Positions 3,394-57,543 of a stretch of 64,000 nucleotides of DNA are shown here, piece after piece; the first letter of the stretch is position 1; each line of letters begins with the position of its first letter. The stretch is from a virus. The position numbers were made by a program, and so were the translations under genes. The stretch lies in the IMG/VR virus record IMGVR_UViG_3300045988_070909, positions 78,626-142,625 of that record; one strand, written 5' to 3'. Under the pieces are notes generated by a model, which was not told where the DNA came from, did not search any database, and worked only from the letters and a program-made list of their open reading frames with translations.

Positions 3394-4203
3394 TTATTTA
3401 CAAACGTCTATTACAGTTAAGTTCTCGTTGCTGGGACGATAATTAATATCCCTATGAGAATTAGATACAATAACCTGGTCAAAATTATTACACATATTAA
3501 CCAGGCCTTTATCATTAACTGCATGACATACGATTATGATAAACTTGCTATTTGGATATCTCTCTTTGAGAACCTTAAGCTCTCCTAGGAAAGTTCCTCC
3601 AGCATCACACAAGTCATCAATGAACACAAATGTAGAATAGTAGCAATTCTTAGACTCCTCTATTTCAAAGGACTCAATTCTTCCAGTCTCTAGATTTCTT
3701 TCCTTTTTGAAGACTAAATAACCATAGTGAGAATAGTTACTTCCATATCTGTCCTTCGCCCCATGGTCTGGGAACACGATATTACTTTGGGCTGGAATCC
3801 AAGAGTGGTGTCCAAATTCCCAAGGTAAACATCTGTCACCAAGAAGATGAAAAGTTCTACTAGAATGTGCCTCAAGAACATATATGTTTCTATAGCCTAA
3901 GCTATTTAACATATTACATACTACTTTCAAGGAGAATGGACGATTAAAACTCATTACTCTATCCATACGCATAGACATTAAATAAGTAATGTGTAAATCC
4001 CATTCTACTTCTTGTCTATCTAAAATATCTCCTACTTGCATTAAGAGGAATAAATCCTCAGTATTAGATATTCTACAAATGACATCAATAGATTCCTTTC
4101 TGTTTAATTCCTCAGTAAGGAAAAACTGAGGCTCTCCATCAGGAAATCTAGTAACATCGTACTTAATTTCACTGATTTCCTTGTTGATTAAGTTTAATTT
4201 CAT
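3394..4203 (-). CDS. prs: ribose-phosphate pyrophosphokinase (PRPP synthetase)-like
   Basis: RFPDGE (cf. Prs RFSDGE), LEAHS (cf. DLHA) and PRPP-binding FIDDLCDAGGT (cf. VDDMIDTGGT) motifs. Confidence 0.75.
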   Translation of the reverse strand: MKLNLINKEISEIKYDVTRFPDGEPQFFLTEELNRKESIDVICRISNTEDLFLLMQVGDILDRQEVEWDLHITYLMSMRMDRVMSFNRPFSLKVVCNMLNSLGYRNIYVLEAHSSRTFHLLGDRCLPWEFGHHSWIPAQSNIVFPDHGAKDRYGSNYSHYGYLVFKKERNLETGRIESFEIEESKNCYYSTFVFIDDLCDAGGTFLGELKVLKERYPNSKFIIIVCHAVNDKGLVNMCNNFDQVIVSNSHRDINYRPSNENLTVIDVCK

Positions 4204-4624
4204 CTACTACATATTTTAAGATTTCATAACTTTCTTCTAGACCTGCCCTATCATCTAGGAGGATATTATAATAGGGTTTCTCAGAATTAGGAAATACAGG
4301 ACTTTCATTTGTATATAGCTCAAAGTCTTCATCCAGACCTAATAATTTAGCAGTTTTCATCTGTTTAATACATAGCTCTTGAAGATTTGTTTCACAGGTA
4401 AACAATATCAAATGAAATCCCAATTTATAACACTTATTAAGTAAATTTATGACTTCACTATAATCTCCTCCATTATTATGGTAATCGAAAATAGTATTAT
4501 CAAAATCGAAAGCGACTATTAGCTTTCCGTATTTATGATACTCTTCTAATAGTCGTTTCTTGCAAGCTTCTTTCCCAAAAGGATGATTAAAGTCCATGGT
4601 CAATTCTTTGTCTGATTTCTTCAA
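4169..4624 (-). CDS. HAD-superfamily hydrolase-like protein
   Basis: N-terminal FDFDNT (DxDxT) HAD motif I. Confidence 0.5.
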   Translation of the reverse strand: MKKSDKELTMDFNHPFGKEACKKRLLEEYHKYGKLIVAFDFDNTIFDYHNNGGDYSEVINLLNKCYKLGFHLILFTCETNLQELCIKQMKTAKLLGLDEDFELYTNESPVFPNSEKPYYNILLDDRAGLEESYEILKYVVDEIKLNQQGNQ

Positions 4625-6089
4625 GAGAATATTCTTTCTTCAAGATACCATCTTCAAAGACAGTCTCTAAGCATCCCTCTTTTTCCTCCTCGATTGAGAC
4701 CTGGTCGGTAGCAGTATACTTCCCATCCAGACCTTTATAGACAGCAATCAAACCTTTCAAAGAGTTCTTAGTACCATCATCAGTTTTAGGATGTTTGAAG
4801 ATTTCTTTCAATTCGCCATTTACTACGCAAGCAGTAGCCTTAATAGCAAACCCAAGACTATCTCTACTTGCATACTGATAGGAATATGAACCTACTCCCA
4901 GAACGAGATTACAAGCCGCCATATGAGCGTTTTCTAATCTCAAGTAGATTTGCTTTTGACGTTCTAGAGTAATAGAATCTCCATAAAGCAGACCAACCTT
5001 AGTGCTAGGATAACGGTAATCCTTTGAAGTAGTATTCCATCCGAAGATTTTACCAAGCATATAATATGCCCCATAATATTGACCTTCGGACACTTCAACA
5101 TACTCTGCATCGTCGTTAAACGGAGCATAGCAGCAATAATACTTACCTTCTTTCATTCTGGTATTGAAGTGAGGATTAGTTCTCAACCCGCAGATTATAT
5201 CTACTGGGTCTCCACTATCAGGACGGATTACTACTCTACCATCACGAGCCATAATGTCTTTCTTCAGCTTGGGCAAGAAATTTTCAATTACATTCCAGAA
5301 ATCCCAAGTATCAGATACAATAGAAACAAACCCAGAAGGATACAAATCATTAATTAGACGTTTGAAAGTGCCCAGCTCATCTTCCTCCCCTCCAGCACAC
5401 ATTACAGAGTGTTCTGTTGCTGGAACTGTAGCAGCAATCAATTCCTCGTCTGAATTAGCTCCATAATATTCTTCCAAAGCAGCAATAGCTGGAATAGTTT
5501 CACTTCCCACAAAAGAAGTCATATGCGCCATACCAGATATAATTGCGGCTTCCATTCCCGCCATACCTCGCATTGAGAAATCATGACAACAAAAACCAAG
5601 ATTTACATCTGTTGGAAAACCAGTCTTGCAAGCATGACGATGTAGCTCTTTCTTATAAAGCCTAGCTCTAGTAGCAGATGTGCATGGCATCCACAAGGTA
5701 CAGCTGATAATAGTCTCTAAGTAGTTAGTTAACCAAAAGAACTCGGGTAGAGTATTTGTAATGGTCATCATGGGAACCCGAATAGGGCACACAGAACCTT
5801 CAGGAAGAGCCTTTATGCGAATTGGTAGATACCCAAGGTCATATAAAGCTTCAATATGTCTGTACCCAACGGATTCAATACCAACAAAGTTGTTTACTCT
5901 ACGATAGAACATCTCCACAGCTTCCTTCTTTGGTAGATTAAAGAAGTTTTTCTCAAACTGTTTAATGAGATATTCTTTGATTAGGTATTGAATACCAAAT
6001 ACTACTGAACCTTCGGTTGCTTCTGGGAAGTATTTATTACTTCTAGGAGTCCAGTTACTATAAACTTGTTCAGTACCTTCGGGGTACAT
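4587..6089 (-). CDS. nadV: nicotinamide phosphoribosyltransferase (NAMPT/NadV)
   Basis: 500-aa ORF with a NAMPT-like core (PATEHSV ... SDTWD, cf. SDSYD); adjacent to the PRPP synthetase gene. Confidence 0.85.
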   Translation of the reverse strand: MYPEGTEQVYSNWTPRSNKYFPEATEGSVVFGIQYLIKEYLIKQFEKNFFNLPKKEAVEMFYRRVNNFVGIESVGYRHIEALYDLGYLPIRIKALPEGSVCPIRVPMMTITNTLPEFFWLTNYLETIISCTLWMPCTSATRARLYKKELHRHACKTGFPTDVNLGFCCHDFSMRGMAGMEAAIISGMAHMTSFVGSETIPAIAALEEYYGANSDEELIAATVPATEHSVMCAGGEEDELGTFKRLINDLYPSGFVSIVSDTWDFWNVIENFLPKLKKDIMARDGRVVIRPDSGDPVDIICGLRTNPHFNTRMKEGKYYCCYAPFNDDAEYVEVSEGQYYGAYYMLGKIFGWNTTSKDYRYPSTKVGLLYGDSITLERQKQIYLRLENAHMAACNLVLGVGSYSYQYASRDSLGFAIKATACVVNGELKEIFKHPKTDDGTKNSLKGLIAVYKGLDGKYTATDQVSIEEEKEGCLETVFEDGILKKEYSLEEIRQRIDHGL

Positions 6090-8257: not shown

Positions 8258-9274
8258 TCATTGTTCGGAAATTATTACGATACGATTAAATTCATTATCT
8301 CCAAATTCAGTGGTAATTCCACATCCCTTAACAACCAATTTATCCTCTGGAGCACCATAGCTAATCAGAGCCTTCTTCATAGATTCTGCCCTAGCTACAG
8401 CAAGGTTATTATTAAACTCTTCTGGACCTTCTTCCGAAGCATATCCCTCAATCACATAAGTTTTTCCACTATTAGAAATATAGGAAGCTAGTTCTGAGAC
8501 AGCCACATTGGAAGTTTTAGAAATCTCTGAAGAATTTTGAAGGAATTGAATTTTTGGAGTCAAAAGCTCTACTTTAGTAATTTCGATTGTGTCCGTCTTA
8601 ACAATTTCTATTGGTTTACGAGCCATAAGTTCCTCATTCTTGGCTCTCAACTCATTAATAGAAGCGTTTAGGCTTTCAACCTCGGCATCACTATACAACT
8701 TCATAATTGGAAAGTCCCCCTTGCTAGACTTAAAGCGATAGGTAGCACCAATATAGACGTTAAACTCATGATTCAGAGGAGAAGTCTTGGGAAGTAACAT
8801 ATACTCAGGAGTAACATTTAATGCCCATCTATTAGAGATATTAAAGTTACATCTAACGGCTCCACGGGCGGATACATTATTATAGACATCTCCATAAGTA
8901 TGATACCAACCAGCACCAACGATTAGTATAGGCTCAAACAGACGCCTATCTCCGTTATATCCACATATCAGGTTAGTAAGATTGGTAGTAACGTTAGCTG
9001 TCAAATTATGTGAATCAAAGAATGTTTTATTTCCTTGGTTCATTCCAGCCATCATGTCTAACTCCAAGCCAAAGATAGGAGTAATCTCCTTACCAATAGC
9101 AATGTTTACTAGTACATCATTTGGTTCAGCCCAACTTCTTGAGTTGTCCCAAGTTGTGGTACCTACATTACCAGAAACATACCAGTTATCTTTCAAACTT
9201 CCAGTTTCAACAACTTGTGCGCTAGCAAACACGCACATTAAACACAAACAAATAATACTAAAAATTTTCTTCAT
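8258..9274 (-). CDS. OmpA-family outer membrane protein
   Basis: Signal peptide, beta-strand-rich N-terminal half and C-terminal OmpA-like domain (YVIEGYASEEG...NLAVARAESMKKALISYG). Confidence 0.7.
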   Translation of the reverse strand: MKKIFSIICLCLMCVFASAQVVETGSLKDNWYVSGNVGTTTWDNSRSWAEPNDVLVNIAIGKEITPIFGLELDMMAGMNQGNKTFFDSHNLTANVTTNLTNLICGYNGDRRLFEPILIVGAGWYHTYGDVYNNVSARGAVRCNFNISNRWALNVTPEYMLLPKTSPLNHEFNVYIGATYRFKSSKGDFPIMKLYSDAEVESLNASINELRAKNEELMARKPIEIVKTDTIEITKVELLTPKIQFLQNSSEISKTSNVAVSELASYISNSGKTYVIEGYASEEGPEEFNNNLAVARAESMKKALISYGAPEDKLVVKGCGITTEFGDNEFNRIVIISEQ

Positions 9275-9290: not shown

Positions 9291-9725
9291 TTAATCCCAC
9301 CAAGACCTCATACGTTCAAACTTTAGTTTGTTGTATAAGTACCAGGCTTTTTCTCTTCTCAGATAATCTTTAAGGATTGGAGTATTCCAATCGAGATCAG
9401 CAGCCTTAGGGTGGAATCGATTCCAATTTTTAGTATTTATGTGTCTATCTACAAATCCCTTTGACCCAGGTCTAAAGTCATGGTGATACGCAGAATCTAT
9501 TTCTAGCACAATATCTAATAGCTTTAGTGCTAGATTTAGCTCTTTTTCGACACGTTCATTGCCTTCCGCAATTCTAGATACCTTAAAGTATTCATACATT
9601 CTAATTAGGGCTTGTTTCTCTAAAGAGAGAACAAATCCATAATCGAATGGATAAAACTTCATAGCTTCTTTGATAAGTTTCTTATTCTTATTCTTTCTTA
9701 GTTTCATATTCCTGACTTGCTTCAA
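9291..9725 (-). CDS. hypothetical protein
   Basis: 144-aa ORF. Confidence 0.5.
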   Translation of the reverse strand: MKQVRNMKLRKNKNKKLIKEAMKFYPFDYGFVLSLEKQALIRMYEYFKVSRIAEGNERVEKELNLALKLLDIVLEIDSAYHHDFRPGSKGFVDRHINTKNWNRFHPKAADLDWNTPILKDYLRREKAWYLYNKLKFERMRSWWD

Positions 9726-10131
9726 CTGCTAATTTATCTGCGAGATTATTCATCTGAGAAAAGAAGTCTGAACTTGAAGTATGTCCTTTCACCCAACAAA
9801 AATCTATATTAGGACAAAATTGCTTTGCCTTATTTAAGACCTTGTCGTATAAATTCCATAACTCTACGTTCTTCTTTCTTTTCCATCCTTTAGTAGCACA
9901 TCCTATGACGTACTGAGAATCTGAGTAAATAGTCAGAGATTCGATTTTACGACTTACTGCATTTAGAGCATAAATTACTGCTAACAACTCACATTTATTA
10001 TTAGTAGTATTAGGAATCATCTTACTAAATTCATAGGCTTTTTCCCCATCAATTACGAATACAACTCCTACTCCTCCTGTGTCTCTAGACGAGCTAAAAG
10101 CTCCATCAGTGAACACTTCTAGCCTGCTCAT
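9688..10131 (-). CDS. rnhA: ribonuclease H
   Basis: TDGA...ELLA...IYSDSQY...WVKGH...NNLADKLA RNase HI motifs. Confidence 0.8.
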   Translation of the reverse strand: MSRLEVFTDGAFSSSRDTGGVGVVFVIDGEKAYEFSKMIPNTTNNKCELLAVIYALNAVSRKIESLTIYSDSQYVIGCATKGWKRKKNVELWNLYDKVLNKAKQFCPNIDFCWVKGHTSSSDFFSQMNNLADKLAVEASQEYETKKE

Positions 10132-11197: not shown

Positions 11198-11354
11198 TTA
11201 CAAGACTATCCACACCTAGAGTGTCTACACTCATTGTGTCAGCAACTTCTTTAACGATTGCGATAGAATCGTTTTCTGGAGCCTGAGTCTTTGTATTACC
11301 TGCACAAGCAGACATCAGTGCAACCATTCCGAAAAGCAATAGTACTTTCTTCAT
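11181..11354 (-). CDS. small lipoprotein (58 aa, below the ORF-track threshold)
   Basis: MKKVLLLFGMVALMSAC signal peptide plus lipobox, read by eye. Confidence 0.35.
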   Translation of the reverse strand: MKKVLLLFGMVALMSACAGNTKTQAPENDSIAIVKEVADTMSVDTLGVDSLVIDSIQ

Positions 11355-11822
11355 TTTTCTTAATTTAAATTAGTTAATAATCATTTTATCTATCAAAAAA
11401 AAGAGTGGTTCCAGTATCTGTGCTTCACCAGATACTTTCCCCACTCCTATCACTCCGAAGAGCTTGTACCATTATTAGGTTGGTCAACCTCCCTCTTCAT
11501 CTTGTTGAGAATTTGGGATAATAGTCACCAAGTTTAAAGATTACTTGTAACTGAAGCAAAAGGCTAGAATCCCGAAGGGATTCCGTAACTCCTTCAACAC
11601 GTGGTTGACGAGCTATGTAGGAAGCTAACGCGCAGGCAAAGATGAAGCCGTAGTCAAAGACCTAGCTACACTAACAAAGACTAAGACACTCAATTAGAGA
11701 GTAGGTTGTAAATTTTTGTGTAGCCAGCGAATAAAGATTAAATCCATGCGGATTTAAGAATATACTGTTCATAATTATTCCTGTTAAGTATGTTATGTTA
11801 GCTTCCTACGGAAGTCCTCTAA

Positions 11823-13011: not shown

Positions 13012-13098
13012 CATAGTAATTAGCTATACTCACGTACCGCTAATCAACTTACTATAATAACAGTACAAGTGTTAAATTCAAAGTTAAAAACCGTTAAC

Positions 13099-13413
13099 TT
13101 ATTTAAACTGCAAACAAATGTTAATAAATTTATCGACATCAGTTCCGCAATCTACATAATTCGGAGTGTTAGCTTCGAAGTATTTGAGAACGGCCTCTGT
13201 TCCAAAAAGTCCTATCTCTTCGAAGTCATACCCCTCACCGTGAATATCCGATGTAGGCATATTTGGTCTGAATACTAACCAGGCTGTACCAGGAAATTCA
13301 CAACACGTACAAACAGTCAATCCACTTTCTCTTAGTTTATCTAAGATTTGTGGACTAACTGTTTTCAATACGACACAATTATCCGAGTTCTGCAAGTCGT
13401 TGTCTGATTTCAT
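13099..13413 (-). CDS. hypothetical protein
   Basis: 104-aa ORF. Confidence 0.5.
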   Translation of the reverse strand: MKSDNDLQNSDNCVVLKTVSPQILDKLRESGLTVCTCCEFPGTAWLVFRPNMPTSDIHGEGYDFEEIGLFGTEAVLKYFEANTPNYVDCGTDVDKFINICLQFK

Positions 13414-19900: not shown

Positions 19901-20049
19901 AGATAAGTTTAATTAATTTTAATGACAGTGTGATATGCAAGCCATTACACCACAGCCTCGATATTTAATCCCAGTACCATATTTCTCTGAGGATTTTTAC
20001 TTGTTGTTTGATTTGTTCAGAAATTTTCTACATATTATTTACAGTGTTA

Positions 20050-20121
20050 GTTGGGAAGGGCAGAGTTGAACTGCCGTCTAGAAATTATCAGTTTCTTGTT
20101 CTAACCGTTAAACTACATCCC
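20050..20121 (-). tRNA. tRNA-Ile (anticodon GAU)
   Basis: Anticodon stem AGAAA/TTTCT with loop CTGATAA; T-loop TTCAACT. Confidence 0.7.
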
Positions 20122-20147
20122 AATCGGTTGAGCTATAGCCCTGTCAT

Positions 20148-20699
20148 GTGGACCTAACGGGAGTCGAACCCGTGTCCAAACAACCCTTATTACAAGGATA
20201 ACGTGCGTCTCATTTTTATTACATCAGCTAGTGAGTTCTAGCATTTAGATAGTTTTACTAGATTTACTCTAAACTACACTATCGAGTTTTAGAAACTAGT
20301 TTACAAACCACCAAACTGGGCTGACCAAAGTCAACTCTCCACCACCTACTTTTTAACGCTAAAATAGGAAAACGAGTGTTTGTGGTGAGTCAACCACGCA
20401 GGTACACATCCCTTCTGTTTAAAGACAGCGGAGATTCAGTCTTACTAACTCTTAGAGTGTTCTGATTAAAGATATACCACGGATTATCGTCCGCACGCCA
20501 TTAGCGGTATACCTAACCTCTTCTGTTTCTAGGTCTCTCCAGTAACCCGACTTGATTAATAGTGTCTATTAATAAGCCAGCAGCTTAGGCTGCCATTCTT
20601 ACAGGTGCAATTTCTGCAGTTATTTGTTTTCTTCGTTTAAAGAGATTGCGCTCTACACGTCCTTATAATTCGTAATCGCCTGTCAAATCCAAGTAGGCC
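20148..20699 (-). ncRNA. ssrA: tmRNA (ssrA), unusually long (~550 nt)
   Basis: 5' end GGGCCUACUUGGAUUUGACAGG matches the tmRNA 5' consensus; G3-U70 wobble pair; 3' end T-arm ACGGGTTCGACTCCCGT plus acceptor TAGGTCC-A; candidate tag ORF GCA GAA ATT GCA CCT GTA AGA ATG GCA GCC TAA (AEIAPVRMAA*). Confidence 0.65.
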
Positions 20700-20742
20700 C
20701 ATGTTCCAGTTTATCTCTGATTAGAAAACTGGAGAAAAGAAA

Positions 20743-21000
20743 TTATAGCATTATAGTTGAGCCAGGAGGCAAAATTGTGACCTTACAAGTAAGCAAACGA
20801 CGCGTATCCTCAACAGTAAACAGCTTAGGATAGCATAGACCGCTACGCCCACCAATGATAATTAAAGCATCTCCGTACCTCTGAACTATAGTTCCAGGCT
20901 CCATTTCCTCGTCACAGAACCAATTTACAATCTCAGCTACATCTCCATCTTTCATATTTGTAAGATGTGTTGTGATTGTCTTATTAATTACTTTTGCCAT
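20743..21000 (-). CDS. hypothetical protein
   Basis: 85-aa ORF. Confidence 0.45.
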   Translation of the reverse strand: MAKVINKTITTHLTNMKDGDVAEIVNWFCDEEMEPGTIVQRYGDALIIIGGRSGLCYPKLFTVEDTRRLLTCKVTILPPGSTIML

Positions 21001-22573: not shown

Positions 22574-22594
22574 AATTTTTTAAATAAAGTTTGT

Positions 22595-22666
22595 GGACAC
22601 GCAGGGACTCGAACCCTATCTTCCGGTGTGCAAAACCAGCGCTCTAGCCATTTGAGCTAACGGCCC
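22595..22666 (-). tRNA. tRNA-Ala (anticodon UGC), acceptor stem imperfect
   Basis: 5' GGGCCGTTAGCTCAAATGGCTAGAGC; anticodon stem CTGGT/ACCGG with loop TTTGCAC; G3-U70 possible. Confidence 0.55.
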
Positions 22667-23589: not shown

Positions 23590-24014
23590 ATATTGGCAGC
23601 TACTTTACATCCGCTACCCAGGGATGCCTCTATCACCAGTGAGGCACGGACTATTCTAACCGTATAGCACGACTGGTTGGTAACGTCTCCAGACACGGCA
23701 TTTAGACTGAAAATGTCGAAACAGTGATTTAAAGATTAAATAGGCTCTGGAAGATATTTCCAAATGTAGCCATACTATGATTTGGTTTTATTCTTACAGC
23801 ATCCTATAATATGACTCTATGCAGATTTATTGTCAGTAATTCCGTTATTAATTAACCATTCCTAAGCTTCTCTGGAACCAAAGAATACCTGTATAAAATT
23901 ACCTGCTAAGTCATACTAAGCAATTAACTTTGCGTTACTTTTTCTAATTTTTATATTATTTGCCTTCAAAACTTTGTAAATAGTGTCTTTACAGCACCCT
24001 ATTTTTTCTTGTAT

Positions 24015-24371
24015 CTAAGAACTAGTATATCCCAATCTAGCTAATTCTACAATTTCACTATGATTGTATAGAATAGTGCCATCTCCTCCTTTAGAGGCAT
24101 TGTACCCATTAGAACCATAAGTTCCTAGCTCTTTTATCCAATAGATTTCTCTTTCAGATAATTCAGAGTTACTATCTACATATTCCAATTCCTCTATCAT
24201 AAAGTTCTCAACACCATACTTATTCATGGCATCATATAAAGGTCTTTTGTTGCATCTTTCTTTCTAAAAGTCATAACAATGTTCCTTCCAGCGCTCTTCT
24301 ATAGAAGTAGTAGTTTTTCCTACGTATCGCTTGCTATTAATTAAATTTGTAATGCAATAAATATATGCCAT
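24015..24371 (-). CDS. GIY-YIG homing endonuclease with an in-frame TAG codon (at 24264-24266)
   Basis: MAYIYCITNLINSKRYVGKT...ERWKEHCYDF[TAG]KERCNKRPLYDAMNKYGVENF...EIYWIKELGT...GYNASKGG aligns with the I-TevI catalytic domain across the TAG. Confidence 0.65.
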
Positions 24372-24391
24372 ATTTTTAAATTTAAAATTAG

Positions 24392-24475
24392 AATCCGTGG
24401 AGGGATTCGAACCCTCATTAAAGATTTCTCTTTTCAGTTTTGCAGACTGATGGCTAAACCATTCACCCACACGGA
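24392..24475 (-). tRNA. tRNA-Cys-like (anticodon GCA, U73) with a long variable arm (class II-like, 84 nt)
   Basis: Acceptor ATCCGTG/CACGGAT, anticodon stem TCAGT/ACTGA with loop CTGCAAA, variable hairpin AAGA-GAAA-TCTT. Confidence 0.5.
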
Positions 24476-24554
24476 TATTAAGATTTAAAGTACTTCTCTC
24501 TAAATGGGATATTAAATAATGAATCATTAATATCCTTATCAGTTATTTCCCTAC

Positions 24555-27861: not shown

Positions 27862-28311
27862 TTACAATTCCCTGTCTCTTATTTTCTCAGCCATAGCACA
27901 CATTTCTTGATAATACTTGACTACTTTATTGAACAATTCTTCAGGAACTATTGCACACTTTTCACTTCCCTGCCCAGGAAGCCATTGACGATTTATCATT
28001 CTCTTCTTTTCAAGACCTATTCTAGTTGTATTGCTGTCTATGAAGACCTCATAGAAATCTTCTTTAACATCTTCTCTAAAGGCAGTAATATCTTTAGTTA
28101 TCTTAAAATAACCAAATGATTGTCTATTGAAGTTTATTTGAAAGCATTTTCCCTCAAAACTTTTTAGAAGTTGATTATTTTCTTCTTCTTTTAGTCTCCT
28201 TCTTTCTGCTTCCTCTCTAGCAATATTATCTAAGTATTCACAATACTCTTGAAGAGAACAGCCAGGATGTTTCCTGGCATATTCTTTCATTGGACTTTCT
28301 CTTGACCACAT
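27862..28311 (-). CDS. hypothetical protein
   Basis: 149-aa ORF. Confidence 0.5.
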   Translation of the reverse strand: MWSRESPMKEYARKHPGCSLQEYCEYLDNIAREEAERRRLKEEENNQLLKSFEGKCFQINFNRQSFGYFKITKDITAFREDVKEDFYEVFIDSNTTRIGLEKKRMINRQWLPGQGSEKCAIVPEELFNKVVKYYQEMCAMAEKIRDREL

Positions 28312-28727
28312 TATTTCACTAATTTTATTTCACAACAAATATTGAGTTTAGGAATAGAAATCCACTCACATATTCCATTGCTATCAACTGGTTTTCCTCC
28401 ATTGATTGTACAAATAGTAATATGTGGTTTGGCATTTGCACAAGGCAAGTCTGGTATAGTAACTCTAAAAGCTATTGCTTTGTTAGAGAAACCTATTCCA
28501 TTTACTTCTACCATCCATGATTCATCAATCTTCTTTACAAGAGAGTCATATATCTCTTTGTCGTTTTGATTTCTGTGGAGCAGAGTACAATGGTCTAGAT
28601 ATAAAGTACTTCCTCTTTGAAGGACCAGATTAGCTATAATAGGATTAGCAAAAATGATTTTCATAAGCTCATTCCTATTATGTTCATTTAAAAACAATCC
28701 GAAATACTGATAATTCATAAATTCCAA
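28311..28727 (-). CDS. 2H-phosphoesterase family protein (LigT/cyclic phosphodiesterase-like)
   Basis: Two H-x-T-x motifs (LDHCTLLH and KPHITIC). Confidence 0.55.
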   Translation of the reverse strand: MEFMNYQYFGLFLNEHNRNELMKIIFANPIIANLVLQRGSTLYLDHCTLLHRNQNDKEIYDSLVKKIDESWMVEVNGIGFSNKAIAFRVTIPDLPCANAKPHITICTINGGKPVDSNGICEWISIPKLNICCEIKLVK

Positions 28728-48418: not shown

Positions 48419-49021
48419 ATGGAAACTTTAAGAACAGAATTGAACAGTAATGAGAAACTAGCACTAGCTATAACTGGTATGGAAGGTACAGGACAGCACC
48501 TTATAGTAAATGGAGAAGCTGCAGATAAAACTTTATTAAGAGAAAAACAGGAAAGATTCAATACAGCAGTAGATGAATTAGAAGATAAATTCTCTAAACA
48601 TAATGCAGCTTTAGAATCTTACGCCAAATCATTATCTGAGGATATGAATGGTGTAGAAATTATGCCTATGTATGGGTATGCATTAATTAAACCTTTCGAA
48701 CAAAATCCGTTTCAAAAAATTAAAACTACTAAGAGTGGATTAATTACAGACTTAGGTGGATTTGCTCCAACATATAAATCTAATGAAACAGGAGAAATAG
48801 AAGAAGAACAACAATTTATTAAAGTGGGTACTGTTATTGAGGTCGGGCACAAGTGTGAGTTCCTAAAACCTGGAGATATAGTATTCTATACAATAGCTAG
48901 CGAGTGCATGGTTCCGTTCTACAAGTTTGGATTTGTTGTAGTTAATGAGAACAGAATTATGGCTGTAGTTAACGAAAATCTAACTGAAAGAAGAAACGAA
49001 TTGAAGTATGGAAACAATTGA
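48419..49021 (+). CDS. GroES-like co-chaperonin (gp31-like?)
   Basis: The C-terminal half aligns with GroES (IKPF...KSGLI...KVGTVIEVG...KPGDIVFY...ENRIMAVVNE). Confidence 0.5.
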   Translation: METLRTELNSNEKLALAITGMEGTGQHLIVNGEAADKTLLREKQERFNTAVDELEDKFSKHNAALESYAKSLSEDMNGVEIMPMYGYALIKPFEQNPFQKIKTTKSGLITDLGGFAPTYKSNETGEIEEEQQFIKVGTVIEVGHKCEFLKPGDIVFYTIASECMVPFYKFGFVVVNENRIMAVVNENLTERRNELKYGNN

Positions 49022-49231
49022 TGAAAAAGTTTATTTTAAGCCTGGGGATTGTGTTACTTTACGGTAGTGTAAAGTAATGCATTCTCCAGTTATGCTTGTT
49101 CTAAGAAGAGAAGCAGCTTTATTTAAAGATAACCAAGGATTACGAGGATTAAGATGTAGATGGTTTACTGATTCCGGACTTATGTAGGAAGCAGTGTTTA
49201 ATACTAAGGATTTAATTAAAGTAGAAGAGTA

Positions 49232-50545
49232 ATGGCTAAAGTGTAGTTTGACCCTGAATTGATGCGTAATATCAAAATTATTTACGGAGATGCGGACTTA
49301 GATGAGAGAACCTTGAGGTAGTTGCATTAGACTTGGGCAACTAATCCAGACATTATTAGAAGAACCGCACAATAGAAAATGCCTAAGTTACAAGAGGCAT
49401 ATTTTGATGCTCCAGAAATGCCTTCATTACCCACAAGATTAGAACCTCTTCCTACTGCTGAAATAGCTTAGGATGATTTAAGAGGTGTTAAAGATTTTAA
49501 GACAGCTTTTAGGGCTGCTAGAGAGAGAGGACTAAAACAGTTTATGTGGGGAAATTCTGTATATACTACAGACTTAGGACAGCCTTCAAGTAAGCCTAAA
49601 CAACCTTCTACCATTCAGATTCCTTAGTCAGATACTTAGATTAGTATAGAAGCTCCAGACCTAATTGCTACAACAAAAGGAACTACTTGGGGTAGAGGAA
49701 TACCAACTATTACAGGAGGCAGTTAGCCAGCTAGTGAATAGACAAGAGCCGAGTAGCCTTCAAGTAAGCCTAAAGTAAATCCTGTACAGGCCACTATCAG
49801 TAGATATACTATGGGAAAGACAGTACAAGGAGGAGATTTTGGGATACATAGGGGGTTATAGAGATTATTTAATTATCTTGGAGATGTATGGAATTCTAGA
49901 AAATCAGAAGCTAAACCATTAACATTATCTCCGGGACATACAACTAAATTTCAACAAGGAGGAACAATGAATAATCAACAAGAATTACAAAAAGCGTTTG
50001 TGGCATATTTAATATAGGATGCGCAGTCATAGGGAGTTCAGATATAGTCTGAACAGGATTTACAAGCTTATGTTGAACAATTAGGTGAAGACGGCATTAA
50101 AGCTAAGTATCAGGAATTTATGCAGAAAATGCAAGGAGGAGTAATGGCTAGGCTTGGAGCTAAGCTTGAGTATTATAAGAAGCTAAAAGGAGTATGTCCA
50201 GAAGGAGAAGAGCTTGTATATTTTAAGCAAGGCGGTAGAATCTGTAAAGCTTGCCAGAAAGCACAAAAAGGAACTAAAGTTACTAAGAAAGCTAATGAAG
50301 TTGATAAATTTAAGGCAGGAAGAGCTTAGTATAAGAAAGATATGAAATCTGCTAGAGACGAAGCCTCAAGAGATTCTATATTAATCAATAAATACAATGA
50401 TTAGGAAACTATGGCCAATAAAGGACATAAGGGTAATTTCCAGGGAGGAAAATGGGTTCCTGACAGAAAACAATATGCTAAGAAAGACGCTTGTGGCTCA
50501 AAAATGAAAGTCAATAAGTGCGGTTCCAAAATGAAAAAGAAATAA
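49232..50545 (+). CDS. TAG-recoded hypothetical (virion?) protein
   Basis: Frame open from ATG 49232 to TAA 50543-50545 only if about 17 in-frame TAGs are sense; includes track fragment 50120-50329. Confidence 0.5.
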
Positions 50546-50582
50546 TAAGATTATCTAATGTGTATGATAATGATTAATGATT

Positions 50583-51143
50583 ATGAATGTATTTAACTAT
50601 AACACTTTAACTAAATAGCTAGAAATAAATGAACCAGAGATATTACTAGTTAAGGAATTTAAGGCTTTAATCTAGAGGGATAAATCTGCAGAAAAGGATA
50701 GAGCTACTAGAGAACTATCTTACATTTATTTAGCTATAGACTGGAAAAGTCCGTACAGTTAGTATTCGGAACATGAACGACATGACGAAGCTATTAGTGA
50801 TTCTGGATTGACAGAGTCAGAATTTAATGACCCTATATTTAGAGAAGCTTGTAGGAAATACAGAGCGTTACAAGATTCAAACAAGTCAATAAAATTACTA
50901 GAAGCAGCTAAAAGAGCTGCAGACTAGTTTATTGATTATTTCGAAACTATTGTAGATTTAAATGAGCGTGATAATAACGGCAAGCCAGTATTCCAGGCTG
51001 AAAAAGTAATGAAGGAAATGGCTACTCTTCACAAAGTTCATGAAGAACTCATAACACTAGAAGACTAGGTTAAGAAAGAACTTACTGAACAATCTACTGT
51101 TAGAGCTGGAGCTGTGGATGGTTTTGACCCAGGAGACTTTTAA
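50583..51143 (+). CDS. TAG-recoded hypothetical protein
   Basis: ATG 50583 to TAA 51141-51143 with 5 in-frame TAGs. Confidence 0.45.
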
Positions 51144-51145
51144 TT

Positions 51146-53518
51146 ATGCCAAGAAAAAAGATATTACCTGAAGAAATATAGAATATTGTAGATTAGGTAA
51201 GAGAAAAAGAATAGAAAGAGGATGCTAAAGAAGCTAGAGAATTAGTATAGAAAATAAGAGAGGAAAGGGTCAGAAATTCTGACTATTGGGATGTTAAAAT
51301 AGGAGATAAAATAGAAGTATTTGACCCTACCTTATCTTATGAAATAACTGGATACAGACCTATTGACGAAACTCATGGATTGGACTTTAATCCAGATTGG
51401 TTTACCGAGACTAGGGAAGTATATAAACGAACTGGTCAATACTGTCCCTACCTTAGAGATAGTAAGCGGTACAACGAATTTTGGAAAGAGCAATATAGAA
51501 GATGTAAGTATGGAATGACAGTTAATGGATACACCATTACTGGAGATAATTACTTCTTCTTAAATTTCTATTAGTTACCTACTATTGACTAGCAGAAAGC
51601 CTCTGGTGAGGGTACTGATAATGACTTCCCAATATTCTTTGCATCACATTATATGTTCTTTCATTATCTATAGATGGCTAGAGTGCTACACAAGCACGCA
51701 GCTTTAATGAAAGCTCGTTCTATTGGATTCTCTGAAATAAACGCCTCTCTTTCTGCTCGTATGTACTCTGTTATTAGAAGAAGTAGGGTTATGATTACTT
51801 GCTTTAATGATACCTTCCTTAAGGGTACCTTTAGTAAGTTTGATAATGCTCTTACATTCTTAAATACCTGTACTGGAGGAGGATTTTTTAAATTGCGACT
51901 TATTGACCAGGATTTGAGAAAGAAATCAGGTAAACAAATCAAAATAAATGGTTAGTTTGAAGACGTAGGATTTAAATCTGAGGTTGTAGCAATTAACGGA
52001 GCTAAACCATCTAATATTCGTGGAGACCGTGTAGATTTATTAATATATGATGAAGCTGGTTCCTGGCCTGGACTTGATACCGCTGTGGTACAAGGTCAAG
52101 AACTTTGTGAAGTTCAAGGTATGCCTCGTGGAACAATGTTGTTTGGAGGTACTGGCGGTGATATGGGTGCTCCTCTAGAGGGCTTAAAAAAGATTTACTA
52201 TAATCCAAGAGCATATAAGATTCTTCCATTTAGACATAATTGGACTTAGGATGGGACTACTATAGAGAGTGGATTCTTTATTCCATACTTTATACAATCT
52301 TTGAATCCAGAATTTATGGACCACAGAGGAGTATGTAATACTGTGGAATATAAGAAATTCTTATAGGAGGAGCGAGATAATCTGTTAGCTGTACCAGAAG
52401 ACTACCTAAAGAAATGCGCTGAACGTTGTTGGAATGCAGAAGAAGCATTTAATCTAGAAGGTGTTAATAAGTTTAATAAAATTTTAGTTGCCGAATAGAT
52501 AGCTAATATAAGACTTAAACAAATTGGCCCAAGACCCGAATGTGGTTATATTGATTATTTTTACAAAAATAATAAACATACTTAGGATAATATTGATGGT
52601 TTTAAATGGATTCCTAACAGCAATGGCAAAGTAAAAATTCTAGAGCATCCAATATGGTCTGACTTATATAAAGAACAAATGGAAAAGCTTAGATAGGAGG
52701 CAGAAGATAATGGCTAGGATTTTGAAGTTCCAGTTTATAAAGAGATGCGAGACTTGTATGTAGCAGGTATAGACGGTATTGATATTGGAGCGAATTAGAC
52801 TTCTAAGGAAACCAGAGACCCGTCTGATTTCTGCATAATGATTAAGAAACGTGCGTTTGGTATGAATGACCCTCAGTATGTTGCCATGTACAAGGATAGA
52901 CCTGGAGACATCAGAGAAGCCTATAAAATAGCTATGTGTTTAGCTCGCTATTATAATTGTAAAATAAATATAGAAGCTACTCGTATGGGTATGGTTACTT
53001 GGGCTAGAGAAAAAGGATGCCTTAACTATTTTATGAAGCGCCCAAGAGCTACTCTAACTGACGTTAGAAATGGAACTACTAAATAGTATGGAACTCCTGC
53101 TACAAAAACTATAATCGAATAGCATACTGATTTAACAGCCGCCTTTATAGAAGACTATTGCCATACTATATGGTTCGAAGAAATGCTAGAATAGTTCACT
53201 GCATATAATGATGAAAATAAGGGTAAGTATGATATTGTAGCCGCTGTAGGTATGACTGAGTTAGCAGACCAAGAGCTATCAGGAAGACAGCCCATACTTG
53301 TGGAGAAAGAAGTTGAATAGTTCCAAGATTTTGGTTACTATTACGACGAGAGAGGAATTAAAAGATTTGGAGTTATTCCAACTAAGAAAACTCCTGAACT
53401 TAATATGCAAAGAAACGAATATGATGACCCATACAGAGTTGAAACAAGTGATCCTAGAATATATGAGGGACTTGTACAAAATGGAGTATATAGGCGGACT
53501 AGATATTGAGAGTTTAGA
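51146..53518 (+). CDS. terL: terminase large subunit (TerL), TAG-recoded
   Basis: Frame from ATG 51146 to TGA 53516-53518 with more than 15 in-frame TAGs; ATPase-like LLIYDEAGSW segment and an RNase-H-like nuclease part (DPSDFCIMIK...INIEATRMG...). Confidence 0.7.
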
Positions 53519-53759
53519 CCCAGTTGGGTATAAAGTCTCTTTTAACTTTGATAGGTCAGAAATGCCATTAGTAATAATAGCAGATTTACCAGACGAAGAA
53601 TTTCTGCCATTTATTAAGGAAGAATTAAGAAGTAGGAAGTTACAAAGAGTTAAGTATTATAACGCTACTAAACTTCCTCCAGAACAACATAATTTATGTT
53701 ATGAAAGAGAAGGAATTGATAGACAAGACAAACGAGGCTATTGCGGAACTTGTATATGA
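53421..53759 (+). CDS. small hypothetical protein overlapping the TerL end and the portal start
   Basis: 113-aa frame MMTHTELKQ... ending TGA 53757-53759. Confidence 0.3.
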   Translation: MMTHTELKQVILEYMRDLYKMEYIGGLDIESLDPVGYKVSFNFDRSEMPLVIIADLPDEEFLPFIKEELRSRKLQRVKYYNATKLPPEQHNLCYEREGIDRQDKRGYCGTCI

Positions 53760-55872
53760 TAAGTATGAGTTACAGAAAGCTTATAATTATTATAATGGTA
53801 AAAGAGATCCTGAATAGTTCCGTTATCTGGAAGAAAACTTCGGAATAGGTAGCCCCACTTCGGTAGAGTTTACGCCTTTATTAAAGAAACACGTAGATGC
53901 TCTAGTTGGAGAATATTTAGGAACTCCTATACTTCCGAAAATTTCTTGCAAAGATTCAGATACTATCAGTAATATAACAAGAGAAAAATAGCTAGAAATA
54001 ACCAAGGGAATAGTAAAGTTTTTGAAAGACCATTTAAGTAATTCAATTCTTAAGTTTATTGATGGCAAGGATATTACTGATAAAGCTGTAAAGACTTAGT
54101 TAGATAAAATTATATAGGATATTGACCAATCCTTTATTTCTCAATATGAAATTGCAGCTTAGAATATAGTACATTATATTATGCAATCCAGAGAAACCGA
54201 TTTAATTACTAAGTTACGTTAGTTACTAACAGACTTATTAATTACTGGTTATACATTCTTTAGAGTGAAATCATCGGCTTCTGGAACTAATATTGAAATA
54301 GAGGTATTAAACCCACTTAATACATTTGTTGATAGAAATCCAGAATCTCCATATGTAAGGAACTCATATAGAGTTGTAGTAAGAAAGTGGATGAGTAAGA
54401 GTTAGATTTTAGCTAAATATGGCAAAGAAATATCTAGAGAAGATTTAAGAAGACTAAAAGATGAATGGCGAGCTGATGATTCAGCTGCTGTTTATAGAAG
54501 AGTATATGGAGATACTTGTACAGTAGTAAATGAAGATTAGAATCATGAAACCATTCCCGGCTATCCAGACAATGAATATAGTGCTCATAGGTTCTAGTTA
54601 ATCCCAGTCTATGATGTTGAATGGATTGAAACAGATGATGATTTTGTGATGTAGAGATACAATACTATCAGAATAGGAGAAGAGATATATATTCTTAGAG
54701 GATTAGACAAGACTGTTATGAGGTCTAAAGATAATCCCAACTTCTGTTCTTTATCGGTAAATGGAGTATATTTCTTAAATCGCTCTTAGTAGCCTTATTC
54801 TCTTATATTAAAATGTGCACATCTGTAGGATAGATACGACTTATTAAACTATTATAGAGATAATCTAATAGCTAATAGTGGTACTGCTGGAGTTATTATG
54901 GATATGTCTCTGTTGCCTACCAACTTAGGAGTTAAATGGCCAGAACGAGTACAAAAATGGTTAGCTTATAAAAAAGGTGGTATCATGTGGATAGACTCAA
55001 GCCAAGAAGGTAGGAATGACGGACAGCAAGCTCCAAACTAGATATATAACGGATTTGATGATACCTTAAAAGCATAGGCTGTATAGGCTATTGAATTAGC
55101 TATTCAATCAGTAGAACAAACTACATCATCAATAACTGGAGTATTTAGGGAACGACTTAACGGTATAGAAACTAGAGATGCAGTTACTAATATTAAGTAG
55201 GGAGTAGCTAACTCGTATATAGTAACTAAGCACTATTTTTAGCAGATGGATTTAATAACCTGCGAGATACTACTAGATAGTCTTAATTAGGCTAAAGTTA
55301 CTTATAAGAAAGGATTAACTGGAACTATTATACTTGGGGATAAATATCAACAGATATTTACAGCACTTCCTGAGTATTTTACTGTTACTGACTACGATAT
55401 TCATATTACTGCTAGTTCAGAAGTGATGGAAGATCTATAGACTATAAAAGCAATCATTCCAGAGTTCGTAAAAAGTCAACAGATGGATCCAGATATTATT
55501 TTTGAGGCTCTTACATCTAAGAGTCTGACAGACCTTAAATATAAGGTTAAGAAAGCTGTTCAAGTTCGCAAAGAGGAAAATAATCAGCTTCAGCAACTAC
55601 AAGAAAAATTAGAAGAAACCTCTCAATAGGCTTAGTAGTTACAGCAAGAATTATAGAAAGCTCAGCAAAAGATTGAAAGCTTAGATGAATAGAGACTGGG
55701 ATTAGAATAGTAGAAGATGCAGTTAGAATATAAAGTTAACTGGCTTAAAGCTCAGTCTGATTCTACTTATAAAGATAGACAAATGGATATTGAAGAAAAA
55801 AGAACTGAAATAGAGTTGGCTTAGCTTCATGATGGAAATCCATATAATGACAAAATAAGACAAATACATTAA
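53701..55872 (+). CDS. portal protein (putative), TAG-recoded
   Basis: ~723-codon frame from ATG 53701 to TAA 55870-55872 with about 30 in-frame TAGs; size and position after TerL. Confidence 0.6.
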
Positions 55873-55873
55873 T

Positions 55874-56602
55874 ATGGCAACTGGAACAATTGTATACAAC
55901 AAAGATTAGTAGTAGATTTATCCTATCTCTGATGGGACAGTAATTATAAGTAATGCTTCCGGTTCTAAATCAAATGTAGAAGACGACTTAAAAAAATTAT
56001 TTAAGTAGGTATCAGATTTATCCGGTTCAAGTGAAGCAGTTAATAGTATTATTATTAAAATACATTATCTCCCTGCTAATACTGCCAATGAATCTGAAAT
56101 AAAACTATCAAGTAAGTAGTGGTCTGATACTTTTGAGCTTCCAACAGAAGAGAATCCATATATATGGAAAAGAACTAAATTTACTTTTTAGGGAGCTGAT
56201 GAATCATAGGGAACTACTATCTATGAAATAGTAGCGAGTGAGGTCTCTACTATTATATAGACTATATATACTAGAACCAAGGGAATAACACCAGTTATAG
56301 AGTATAAACAAAAAACGAATGAAAAAGGAGATCCTCTCTATATGGATTCTGACGGGAGAGAAACCACAGAAGTAACCTCTACTAAAGCCTATGACTATAA
56401 CTACTACTGGAATGGACAGCCCTCCTCTGGGATTGATAAATTACCTCCTACTCCAGATGGATAGTCTTATACCTGGACTGACTATCCACAAGATATTAGT
56501 TTATCTTTTACTTCTGTTTTTATGTCTAGACGTATAAAGCAATCTGGAAAGTGGGGACCTTTTTCTACACCAGCTCAATACGGTCAATGGCCTAACACTT
56601 AA
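55874..56602 (+). CDS. TAG-recoded hypothetical structural protein
   Basis: ATG 55874 to TAA 56600-56602 read codon by codon; 8 in-frame TAGs. Confidence 0.5.
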
Positions 56603-56614
56603 TATTATTGCAAT

Positions 56615-57346
56615 ATGGAATTTAGTATTGATATACATACCCAAATTAATGGGGAAATACTGATAGAAGATTTCTCAAAAGAATATGGCTAGTATATTGA
56701 TGAAGATGTAGAGGTAGTAACTTCTTACGACTCCTATAAGTATAGTGAGAGTGCTACCTTGAATACTATCATCAAAGTTAGTATAAGCGATGCTACTCTG
56801 ATAGATGTCCTACTTAATGACCATACAGAAGACTTAGACTCGTGTATGTTTAAGGTCAAGGATGATGGTTATTACGTAGTAGACCATATCATTATTCCTA
56901 ATATGAAATGGTATGAAAATTCATCGGACGAATACAAGGAATACTATGAGACTATCTATGTTACTGATGGAGAAAAATTATATAAAGAAGTAGAAGGTAA
57001 GCTAGAAGAGTGTACAGTTAAAGAAGTTCTTGAACGAAACATAGAAGGAACTACTATAAAAAAATGTAAGGTAGATGTTTTCTTTACAGGAAACTTGTAG
57101 TAGTGTTACATTAATTATTGTAAGAAACTCTTTGATGCTTTACTAAATAAGTGTCTAACTAGAGATTAGGAAGCAGATATATTTGCTCGAGATTTCATAT
57201 GGATGACTCTTAACATTATAGATTATTTAATATGCTTTAAACAATTCATGGAGGCTGAAAGATTACTAGCGATGTTCCGTACCTGTGGAGGATTCTGTGA
57301 CAATCACCACCATGGACATAAACGTATAGGTTGTGGATGCTCTTAA
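56615..57346 (+). CDS. TAG-recoded hypothetical protein (C-terminal CGGFCDNHHHGHKRIGCGC)
   Basis: ATG 56615 to TAA 57344-57346; includes track fragment 56759-57100. Confidence 0.5.
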
Positions 57347-57543
57347 GAGAAAGGCTATTAAAAGGTATGAGGATTTTCTAAGAAAACTCAAAAAGGGATA
57401 TAAACCAGATTATCAAGATATTCTTAATCTAATTTGTTTTATTAACCTACCTGTAAGACTAGATAATCACGAATTTATTAAATAGCAATTATTAAACTAG
57501 AATGATACAGTCTATTTACACTTCGGTAAGTAACGCAGATATA

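Follow-up and report, generated by a model that had tools for sequence, protein, structure and literature searches.

Does the unusually long RNA gene on the minus strand of a 64,000-nucleotide (nt) stretch of viral DNA (positions 78,626 to 142,625 of IMG/VR record IMGVR_UViG_3300045988_070909; hereafter, the window) encode a working transfer-messenger RNA (tmRNA), and if so, where does its extra length reside? A preliminary description, made from the sequence alone, had read this locus as a phage-encoded tmRNA of about 550 nt and had suggested that an insertion, or a permuted or two-piece form, might account for its size. Our analysis makes it likely, on sequence grounds, that this is a working, standard, one-piece tmRNA gene of a crAss-like gut phage with a genome of ~190 kb that probably belongs to the Zeta group.

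When the minus strand was compared with the Rfam tmRNA model RF00023, a significant match was obtained at 20146-20700 (73.4 bits against a gathering score of 47; E = 1.2e-26), so the tmRNA signal is far above chance. The match spans model positions 1-374, including both termini, in the normal 5'-to-3' order. Combining the model match with the sequence placed the whole gene at 20149..20700 on the minus strand, with G1 at 20700 and the discriminator A at 20149 (RNA 1-552; window position equals 20701 minus RNA position). The gene had earlier been placed at 20148-20699; the features named there are all present, but the position was off by one base. Read from 20700 to 20149, the gene starts with GGGCCUACUUGGAUUUGACAGG and ends with GGACACGGGUUCGACUCCCGUUAGGUCC-A, in agreement with the 5' end and the ...GGGUUCGACUCCCGUUAGGUCC-A 3' end already noted. 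It measures 552 nt before CCA addition; the bases directly after the discriminator are CAU, so CCA is not encoded and must come posttranscriptionally. As previously remarked, the region is devoid of protein-coding sequence: no open reading frame (ORF) of at least 30 amino acids (aa) was found on either strand of 20158-20742, and a hidden ORF within the gene was rejected on this basis. A second RNA family in the unaligned part of the gene was also rejected, since Rfam searches of 20000-20800 at E values up to 10 returned only chance-level matches (wcaG, E = 0.075, and a plastid untranslated-region model antisense to a tRNA).

The permuted form proposed earlier did find weak echoes, in that the permuted model RF04321 gave two partial matches (26.6 and 16.8 bits) and permuted tmRNAs occur in other viral contigs. 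Both matches fall below the cutoff of 47, whereas the standard model matches end to end. Since this match is in normal order and the two ends of the RNA form a single acceptor stem, the gene is a standard one-piece tmRNA gene, and a two-piece arrangement has next to no chance of being correct. ARAGORN, which had been suggested as a check, called 26 tRNAs in the window and missed the full-length tmRNA gene; once RNA 153-383 had been deleted in silico, it called the gene with the tag AEIAPVRMAA* at 84-116.

Searching with a 22-mer of the 5' terminus retrieved 33 IMG/VR loci, and a profile search of loci fetched by other patterns added divergent members that differ in acceptor stem, T-arm, and tag. 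As a pattern, a 14-mer of the tag proved too unspecific, and nhmmer on the matches listed for it yielded 12 divergent relatives. The resulting family comprises 55 distinct full-length sequences of 515-596 nt (median, 553), which underlie the pairing and compensatory-change counts given below for the acceptor stem, P2, and the T-arm. Seven divergent relatives scored 47.8-83.7 bits with RF00023, all at or above the cutoff. ARAGORN missed 52 of the 55 family members and assigned a wrong tag to the remaining three.

The tRNA-like domain of the window RNA is complete. The 5' strand of the acceptor stem, GGGCCUA (20694..20700, minus strand; RNA 1-7), pairs with RNA 545-551 of the 3' strand, UAGGUCC plus the unpaired discriminator A (20149..20156; RNA 545-552), and this pairing contains the G3-U70 wobble that had been pointed out before. 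Across the family, the 7-bp stem is paired in 383 of 385 cells (0.99) with compensatory changes at two positions (5 and 7), and the G3-U pair is invariant (55/55). The T-arm, ACGGG-UUCGACU-CCCGU (20157..20173; RNA 528-544), has an uninterrupted loop of the GUUCNANUC type and is paired in 275 of 275 cells, with three compensatory pairs among the variants ACGGG, GGCGG, GAGGG, and AGGGG; the D-loop analogue, GGAUUUGAC, aligns to GGaUUCGAC of the model. The P2 connector helix, whose 5' strand (20655..20684; RNA 17-46) pairs with RNA 495-527 (3' strand, 20174..20206), consists of 23 pairs in three segments that are 0.97-1.00 paired, with 11 compensatory positions: six in P2a (0.97 paired), five in P2b (1.00), and none in P2c (1.00). 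In controls in which one strand was slid against its partner by one to three columns, pairing was far lower for the acceptor stem, P2a, P2b, and the T-arm, whereas two of six registers of the invariant P2c still reached 0.80 and 0.96. The PK1 region (20626..20654; RNA 47-75, by Rfam alignment) contains a clear stem 1, AGAG/CUCU, which is invariant and paired in 220 of 220 cells. Together with the RF00023 score, the covariation in the acceptor stem, P2, and the T-arm bears out the tmRNA identity that had been proposed.

The tag reading frame is likewise intact. The resume context UAACU (RNA 79-83) and the tag frame GCA...GCC UAA (RNA 84-116) lie at 20585..20622 on the minus strand, and Rfam aligns the GCA to the resume codon of the model. 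The frame is the one described earlier, GCA GAA AUU GCA CCU GUA AGA AUG GCA GCC UAA (AEIAPVRMAA; window 20617-20585), and it follows AAAUAACU. The stop codon sits in the loop of helix H5, GGCAGC/GCUGCU (20579..20594; RNA 107-122), which is 0.97 paired across the family; only one tag, that of locus L214, has a GCA-to-GUA change, for which the H5 stem compensates (GGUAGC/GCUACU). In all 55 sequences, UA(A/G)NU, the equivalent of E. coli U85-A86, precedes a G-initial resume codon (GCN or GGN).

Twelve tag variants were found, all of them 9 or 10 aa long and all ending in (R/K)-M-(A/V)-A. The most frequent are GNTEVRMAA (16 sequences), AEIAPVRMAA (11), and ATYSEVRMAA (11), followed by AERSDVRMAA and AERSDYRMAA (4 each) and by AEIDYNRMAA and ATTSVRMAA (2 each); AAYSEVRMAA, AERSEYRMAA, GNTEVKMAA, GNTVYRMVA, and GETEGFRMAA occur once each. 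The two length classes differ by 3 nt, substitutions near the C terminus are conservative (R/K and V/Y/F), and synonymous changes are seen in the last Ala codon (GCC, GCG, or GCU) and in the Gly resume codon (GGC or GGA). The tags stop with TAA in 52 sequences, TGA in 3, and TAG in none; the three phages whose tags stop with TGA are amber recoded too, and their large terminase (TerL) genes end in TGA. The preliminary description had singled out the MAA ending as unusual. This ending is indeed kept throughout the family as (R/K)-M-(A/V)-A, and it differs from the YALAA of the GENNYALAA tag of Bacteroidales-type tmRNAs; by itself it is not exceptional, since ...AMAA tags occur in Chlorobi and Cytophaga.

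Where, then, does the extra length lie? The comparison set consisted of 17 distinct tmRNAs of the Bacteroidales type (tag GENNYALAA), taken from IMG/VR prophage flanks; 16 of them are 393-399 nt long and one is 336 nt. The phage RNA is ~40% longer than these bacterial tmRNAs, so the remark on its unusual length holds. The 5' and 3' parts are equal in size in the two groups. The segment from the tag stop to the 3' strand of P2, in contrast, measures 375 nt in the window and 336-416 nt across the family, against 208-214 nt in 16 of the 17 Bacteroidales-type tmRNAs and 150 nt in the short one. All of the excess length is thus located between the tag stop and the P2 3' strand. By nhmmer, only the 5' 90 nt and the 3' 35 nt were similar to Bacteroidales tmRNAs, with nothing detected in the pseudoknot region.

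This region begins with hairpin Ha, directly after H5 (20549..20578; RNA 123-152), which is present in every variant with differing sequences (e.g., AUUAAUAG/CUAUUAAU versus GUUGGUAG/CUAUUAAC) and has compensatory changes at eight positions. It is followed by an expanded multihelix domain (20318..20548; RNA 153-383) that makes up most of the 268 nt left unaligned after H5 by Rfam. The closing helix of this domain, GGGUU/AGCCC (153-157/379-383), is 1.00 paired without double changes. In the next helix, GGAGA/UCUCC (161-165/267-271), an extra A always occurs with an extra U (GGAGAA/UUCUCC; 17 versus 37 sequences, 0 discordant). Within it lie an invariant ACCU/AGGU hairpin (167-185), hairpin Hb (187-231), and two small hairpins (243-265). 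Depending on the variant, Hb forms from one of seven unrelated stem sequences, namely AGGUAUACCGC/GUGGUAUAUCU, UGUAUCUAAGU/GCUUAGAUGCA, GUACAG/CUGUAC, GAGUAUAUUG/UAAUAUACUC, GUGGG/CCCAC, GUGCAG/CUGCAC, and AGAUAUAUCGU/GUGAUAUAUCU. RNA 272-326 is variable: some types have one or two hairpins there and others a small pseudoknot (read partly by eye). Hairpin Hc (333-357) is CCUAUUUU/AAAGUAGG in the window and CUCCA/UGGAG or CUUCA/UGAAG in other types; since all three form locally, an alternative pairing proposed by RNAalifold (327-337/356-366) was dropped. An invariant GUGGUGGAG motif separates Hc from hairpin Hd (369-378), which has four compensatory pairs. The exact fold of RNA 153-383 is a model; for example, UCUCC (267-271) could pair with GGAGA at 361-365 instead, and the invariant motifs are beyond the reach of covariation.

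Downstream of this domain lies module E (20248..20317; RNA 384-453), with a closing stem, GGUGGUUU/AAACUAUC (0.97 paired), a second stem, ACUAG/CUAGU (0.88 paired, four compensatory pairs), and an inner stem, UCUAAAACU/AGUUUAGA. In several variants (L001, L004, and L074), its interior reads as an H-type pseudoknot, e.g., AAGCGGA/UCCGCUU with GCUAGAU/AUCUAGC in L004. The last pseudoknot (20209..20242; RNA 459-492) combines stem 1, GCUAG/CUAGC (0.93 paired; two compensatory pairs, GCCAG/CUGGC and GCUG/CAGC), with a stem 2 in which the loop sequence CUCA pairs with UGAG at 489-492 (0.89 paired). The pseudoknot ring thus appears, from these sequences, to be enlarged to about a dozen helices.

A typical tmRNA has four pseudoknots (PMC11915505). 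The consensus PK2-PK4 layout is not found here: 268 nt are left unaligned in the window and 114 plus 158 nt in L103, and only the last element, along with module E in some variants, resembles an H-type pseudoknot. Since PK2-PK4 is a region of known variability that can largely be dispensed with (PMC3985003), the lack of this layout marks a variant and does not exclude the RNA from the tmRNAs.

Given that the excess is concentrated in one segment, we asked whether the ~230 nt of RNA 153-383 could be a self-splicing intron or mobile insertion whose removal would leave an ordinary tmRNA of ~320 nt. Zeta crAss-like phages are reported to be unusually intron rich (PMC7886860), ARAGORN accepts the RNA once this segment is removed, and the authors of a large tmRNA database state that introns outside the T-loop could be missed (PMC11915505). 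Yet no group I or group II intron model and no ribozyme model matched 20000-20800 at E values up to 10, and the flanks as read from the sequence (a C before the segment and a C as its last base) break the group I rule of a U at -1 and a terminal G. Moreover, the domain is present in all 55 relatives, with invariant motifs between swapped hairpins and no recognizable catalytic core. Shorter viral tmRNAs (425-490 nt) share its 3' portion (Hc-GUGGUGGA-hairpin-CCC), and a similar GUGGGUGG-CUUCGGUC motif is visible by eye in Bacteroidales tmRNAs, so this portion looks like ancestral tmRNA. A spliced insertion is therefore quite improbable in our judgment. The earlier suggestion of an insertion stands only if it means that the pseudoknot region has expanded throughout the lineage; as an intron it finds no model match, and the T-loop, to which all known introns of tmRNA genes are confined (PMC11915505), is intact. 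No paralogue of the expanded domain was found elsewhere in the window.

The interior of the RNA is also exchanged among close relatives. Over 1.5-6.5 kb on either side, four loci (L016, L001, L035, and L148) match the window at 94.5-99.7% identity, except that the 3' side of L001 amounts to just the last 117 nt of the gene, where its record ends. Across RNA 187-438, none of the four can be aligned to the window, which defines a replaceable cassette of 252 nt (20263..20514, minus strand). A covariation scan based on a global MAFFT alignment was too noisy in this mosaic interior and was replaced by anchor-delimited segments. Between invariant anchors, we distinguished six types of Hb, five of the next variable block, and 11 of module E, in reassorted combinations; module E type D, for example, was found with three different 5' types. 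These combinations indicate that the interior modules recombine at the invariant anchors. The interior also grows by hairpin duplication, judging from L107 and L120, which carry one and two tandem extra copies, respectively, of a ~35-nt hairpin, AGGUUUGGAAGCGUCAGCUUCUGAACCUUUAA, between GUGGUGGA and the last AGUUUGG, giving tmRNAs of 576 and 596 nt. PK2-PK4 are interchangeable and replaceable in E. coli (PMC3985003), and the module swapping fits this known tolerance.

Standard tmRNAs of 425-503 nt were present on other IMG/VR viral contigs, including L293 (4521-5023), L305 (3249-3738), L302 (2317-2750), and L292 (4355-4779), and three of them share a GGUGGUGGA-hairpin-CCC motif. Because these RNAs reach 425-503 nt, the family represents the top of a continuum of lengths and not a jump. 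By eye, the shorter viral tmRNAs have long tags, e.g., one of 27 aa ending in ELA. The same group of contigs includes L285, L287, L289, L294, L301, L303, and L304; several other contigs have permuted tmRNAs, of which at least that of L285 lies in a tRNA array.

To whom does the gene belong? An invariant internal 20-mer, GACCTAGAAACAGAAGAGGT, was found in at least 91 IMG/VR contigs, mostly of 100-190 kb. Among 185,579 species genomes, it occurred in only two contigs of metagenome-assembled genomes (MAGs): L148 (CALEBD010000016.1, from a Clostridium sp. MAG) and L149 (CAZEMQ010000001.1, from a Muribaculaceae MAG). Around the tmRNA, L148 matches the window at 97-99% identity and is probably misbinned phage DNA, and both contigs are probably binned phage; an origin in bacterial genomes was rejected on this count. 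Among GenBank phage records, two unannotated fecal fragments matched and nothing else did.

These distributions bear on whether the gene might be a passenger, i.e., a recent capture of a host gene or a leftover of integration into ssrA, that does nothing for the phage. Integration into tmRNA genes is common (PMC11915505), both ends of the gene (5' 90 nt and 3' 35 nt) are similar to Bacteroidales tmRNAs, and two relatives have damaged copies. On the other hand, the full-length gene persists in at least 91 viral contigs, including lineages that have diverged with compensating changes in the acceptor stem, T-arm, P2, and tag; the pseudoknot region is without detectable similarity to Bacteroidales tmRNAs; among the 185,579 species genomes, the core motif is restricted to the two probable phage MAG contigs; and no integrase was seen nearby. 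We consider a passenger very unlikely; the gene is real and most likely functional.

The gene lies in an early, standard-code, minus-strand region, within a tRNA array on the same strand. A tRNA-Ile(GAU) gene (20050..20122, minus strand; ARAGORN and Rfam) is located 26 nt downstream, and the layout is the same in relatives; the window contains 26 (ARAGORN) to 28 tRNA genes in all. No neighboring protein gene conserved with the tmRNA persists in divergent variants. A scan of the flanks for sigma-70 promoters and intrinsic terminators, which did not cover Bacteroidota-type promoters, gave chance-level matches.

From ~46 kb, a plus-strand block carries the large terminase (phrog_6681, E = 5e-63) and portal genes, as identified by PHROG matches. 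This late block (46000-64000) is TAG recoded, and at its head stands an amber suppressor tRNA(CUA) gene (44477..44549, plus strand; ARAGORN and Rfam). When TAG was read through, ORF coverage of 48-64 kb rose from 0.14-0.17 to 0.83-0.92. TerL (51146-53509, plus strand) contains 19 in-frame TAG codons and the portal gene (53701-55872, plus strand) contains 28; other late ORFs contain 4-21, whereas the early minus-strand ORFs mostly have none. The stops of 56 long ORFs are TAA in 40 cases and TGA in 16. Among the tmRNA-bearing contigs of the family, TerL was retrieved for 24, and it is amber recoded in every one of them, with 15-20 in-frame TAG codons. Together with the relatives on viral contigs of 100-190 kb, these genes and their recoding establish the phage origin proposed at the outset.

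The TerL of the window shares 25-28% identity with Crassvirales TerL, human feces have yielded near-identical DNA, and the viral contigs of relatives reach 185-192 kb. Phages of the Zeta crAss-like group measure 145-192 kb, recode TAG or TGA in their late genes, and are rich in tRNAs and introns (PMC7886860). The phage is thus crAss-like, of ~190 kb, and probably of the Zeta group; the Zeta assignment is provisional and draws on group traits (TerL, size, TAG recoding, tRNAs, and the TerL insertions of some relatives). A published Zeta crAss-like phage encodes a CCA-adding enzyme (PMC12386605); none was found in the window.

All of the determinants of trans-translation are present in the RNA: the G3-U70 acceptor, the T-arm, P2, UAACU|GCA, the 10-residue AEIAPVRMAA, and the UAA in the H5 loop. 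We propose that the transcript would be processed from the tRNA array like a tRNA, with CCA added after transcription, and that host alanyl-tRNA synthetase (AlaRS) would alanylate it via G3-U70. Host SmpB and EF-Tu would bring the charged RNA to ribosomes stalled at mRNA 3' ends, translation would move to the tag frame at GCA and stop at UAA, freeing the ribosome, and the product bearing the ...RMAA tag would be degraded. The pseudoknot ring is expanded in a lineage-specific manner, with modules between invariant anchors being exchanged by recombination.

Several observations weigh against this reading. PK1 stem 2 has only 2-3 bp, read by eye, in the type to which the window belongs; other types have a 3-bp stem with one covarying pair (U-A, U-G, or C-G), read from the alignment. 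Nucleotide variation is almost absent from the final five codons of the tag, which overlap H5, and constraint at the RNA level thus explains part of the conservation of the tag. The absence of TAG tag stops is weak evidence, as UAG is a rare tag stop in bacteria as well. The gene is dispensable in some lineages: L298 retains only the last 37 nt of the tmRNA (3624-3660), after an ORF and with the same downstream flank as L119, and in L020 (7390-7950), the 3' acceptor strand has been replaced by an unrelated sequence with a terminator-like hairpin, so the gene can be lost. Neither SmpB nor another translation factor was found in 40 ORFs of the window (Pfam) or in the retrieved loci (tblastn, with E. 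coli SmpB as the query); reliance on host SmpB is an assumption, with the rest of the ~190-kb genome unseen. Finally, alanylation, SmpB binding, and tagging by this RNA are inferred from established tmRNA biology, and its link to recoding, discussed below, is suggestive, being a co-occurrence within one clade with no tmRNA-free control.

The lack of a phage SmpB in the window scans would also suit a decoy, i.e., a tmRNA mimic that soaks up host SmpB, AlaRS, or stalled ribosomes and so blocks trans-translation by the host. The tmRNA-like RNA of mycobacteriophage DS6A, which lacks a coding sequence, acts as an inhibitor (PMC11915505), and an enlarged pseudoknot ring might fit the ribosome poorly. 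A pure decoy, however, would have no need of the full tag frame, resume context, (R/K)-M-(A/V)-A ending, and H5-loop stop that are kept in 55 of 55 sequences, and we therefore regard this alternative as unlikely. The DS6A RNA resembles the present one in being phage encoded and in having a tmRNA-type tRNA-like domain; it has no tag frame, whereas the family described here keeps a conserved one.

Why would a phage keep a working tmRNA of its own? Plausibly, although with less certainty, it copes with non-stop ribosomes that arise from amber suppression. Once the amber suppressor tRNA is switched on to read the TAG-rich late genes, readthrough of UAG-terminated host or early messages, along with mRNA decay during infection, would generate non-stop ribosomes, and an extra tmRNA would keep ribosomes available. 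Nonsense suppressors do create trans-translation substrates in E. coli (Ueda et al. 2002, as cited in PMC3985003). A stronger proposal makes the expanded RNA with its swapped cassettes a dedicated component of amber recoding: it would clear non-stop ribosomes and mark their products with a phage-specific ...(R/K)MAA tag, and module turnover would be selected; we put this forward tentatively and hold it to be possible but doubtful. The rapid exchange of modules would then reflect selection, e.g., for escape from an RNA-targeting host factor, and not neutral drift. If the RNA has this dedicated role, the family would also comprise the longest known intron-free tmRNAs.

Compared with Bacteroidales-type tmRNAs, the phage RNAs share the tRNA-like domain with G3-U70, P2, a PK1 region, a UAACU-type resume context, and a 9- to 10-aa tag that ends in Ala-Ala with its stop in the H5 loop, and many of them contain a Bacteroidales-like UGGUUUUGACAG motif. 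They differ in length (515-596 versus 393-399 nt), in the pseudoknot region (336-416 versus 208-214 nt, with about a dozen helices and swappable modules), in the end of the tag ((R/K)MAA versus YALAA), and in being phage encoded inside a tRNA array. Virus-borne tmRNAs beside large tRNA sets, with an assumed rescue role, have been described in huge phages (PMC7162821); they were detected by ARAGORN, a program blind to 52 of the 55 RNAs of this family, and some huge phages encode SmpB, whereas none was found here.

In intron-form tmRNAs, a group I intron interrupts the T-psi-C loop, whereas here the T-loop is contiguous and the extra sequence is in the pseudoknot region. In cyanobacterial tmRNAs, PK4 is replaced by tandem smaller pseudoknots, so length is likewise added through helices of the ring, and the hairpin duplication in L107 and L120 would be the same mode of growth; the scale of expansion and the exchange of cassettes between near-identical genomes would set the phage family apart. 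Mycobacteriophages of cluster C also carry a tmRNA.

A database of 97,179 tmRNA sequences applied a 500-bp size cutoff and a score cutoff that together were taken to exclude all non-intron forms (PMC11915505), and tmRNA is not mentioned in two papers on the Zeta group (PMC7886860 and PMC12386605). Phage tmRNAs as a kind are not new (PMC7162821). What is new is the crAss-like host lineage, the intron-free size, the expanded ring that exchanges cassettes, and the detection gap of ARAGORN.

crAss-like phages are among the most abundant viruses of the human gut, and ARAGORN, as used in Pharokka, is the standard route for annotating phage tmRNAs. The family therefore exposes an annotation blind spot, in that the usual tool misses 52 of 55 genes in crAss-like phages and mistags the other three. 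It also joins two testable translation tricks, namely, amber reassignment by a phage suppressor tRNA and ribosome rescue, and it offers a natural experiment in which the ring grows (336-416 nt) and shuffles while the tRNA-like domain, P2, resume site, and tag end stay fixed.

Some further observations concern the surroundings of these genes. L172 carries a Bacteroidales-type tmRNA of 398 nt (11198-11595, minus strand; GENNYALAA) whose acceptor, GGGCUUG...CAGGUCC, is phage-like and unlike the usual GGGG...CUCC, which hints at the donor or host lineage. In L042, a Hatchet ribozyme (13016-13099; 81.8 bits) lies ~500 nt upstream of the tmRNA, and RAGATH-34 RNAs are found by the tmRNA/tRNA region of L119 (9604-9704) and L298 (4467-4574). 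In L274 (1501-5022), L279 (1501-5029), L260, and L281, TerL is interrupted by ~1 kb of stop-rich sequence; these interruptions are consistent with the introns or inteins reported for Zeta crAss-like phages.

Within the window, a tRNA(UUA) gene, which would read the UAA stop, is located at 41376-41446 on the minus strand, 27 nt from a full-length RAGATH-14 RNA (41473-41679, minus strand; 156.6 bits); it is present although most long ORFs of the phage (40 of 56) stop with TAA, which is also the main stop of the tmRNA tag. Two tRNA-like genes (22594-22666 and 29400-29476, minus strand; 39.5 and 31.7 bits) were seen by Rfam and missed by ARAGORN. Among the tRNA genes, an ORF at 23736-24527 (minus strand) has six in-frame TAG codons despite lying in the standard-code early region; it contains a GIY-YIG-like motif by eye (YCITNLINSKRYVGKT) and may be a homing endonuclease or a decaying gene. 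Pfam matched the cyclic phosphodiesterase-like domain of tRNA ligase at 28311-28727 (minus strand), possibly pointing to tRNA repair. Listed with it were minus-strand matches at 9688-10131, 3394-6089, and 8258-9274; the early-region matches were to RNase H, to nicotinate/nicotinamide phosphoribosyltransferase by a phosphoribosyltransferase (PRTase)-like protein (NAD salvage), and to an OmpA-like outer-membrane protein.

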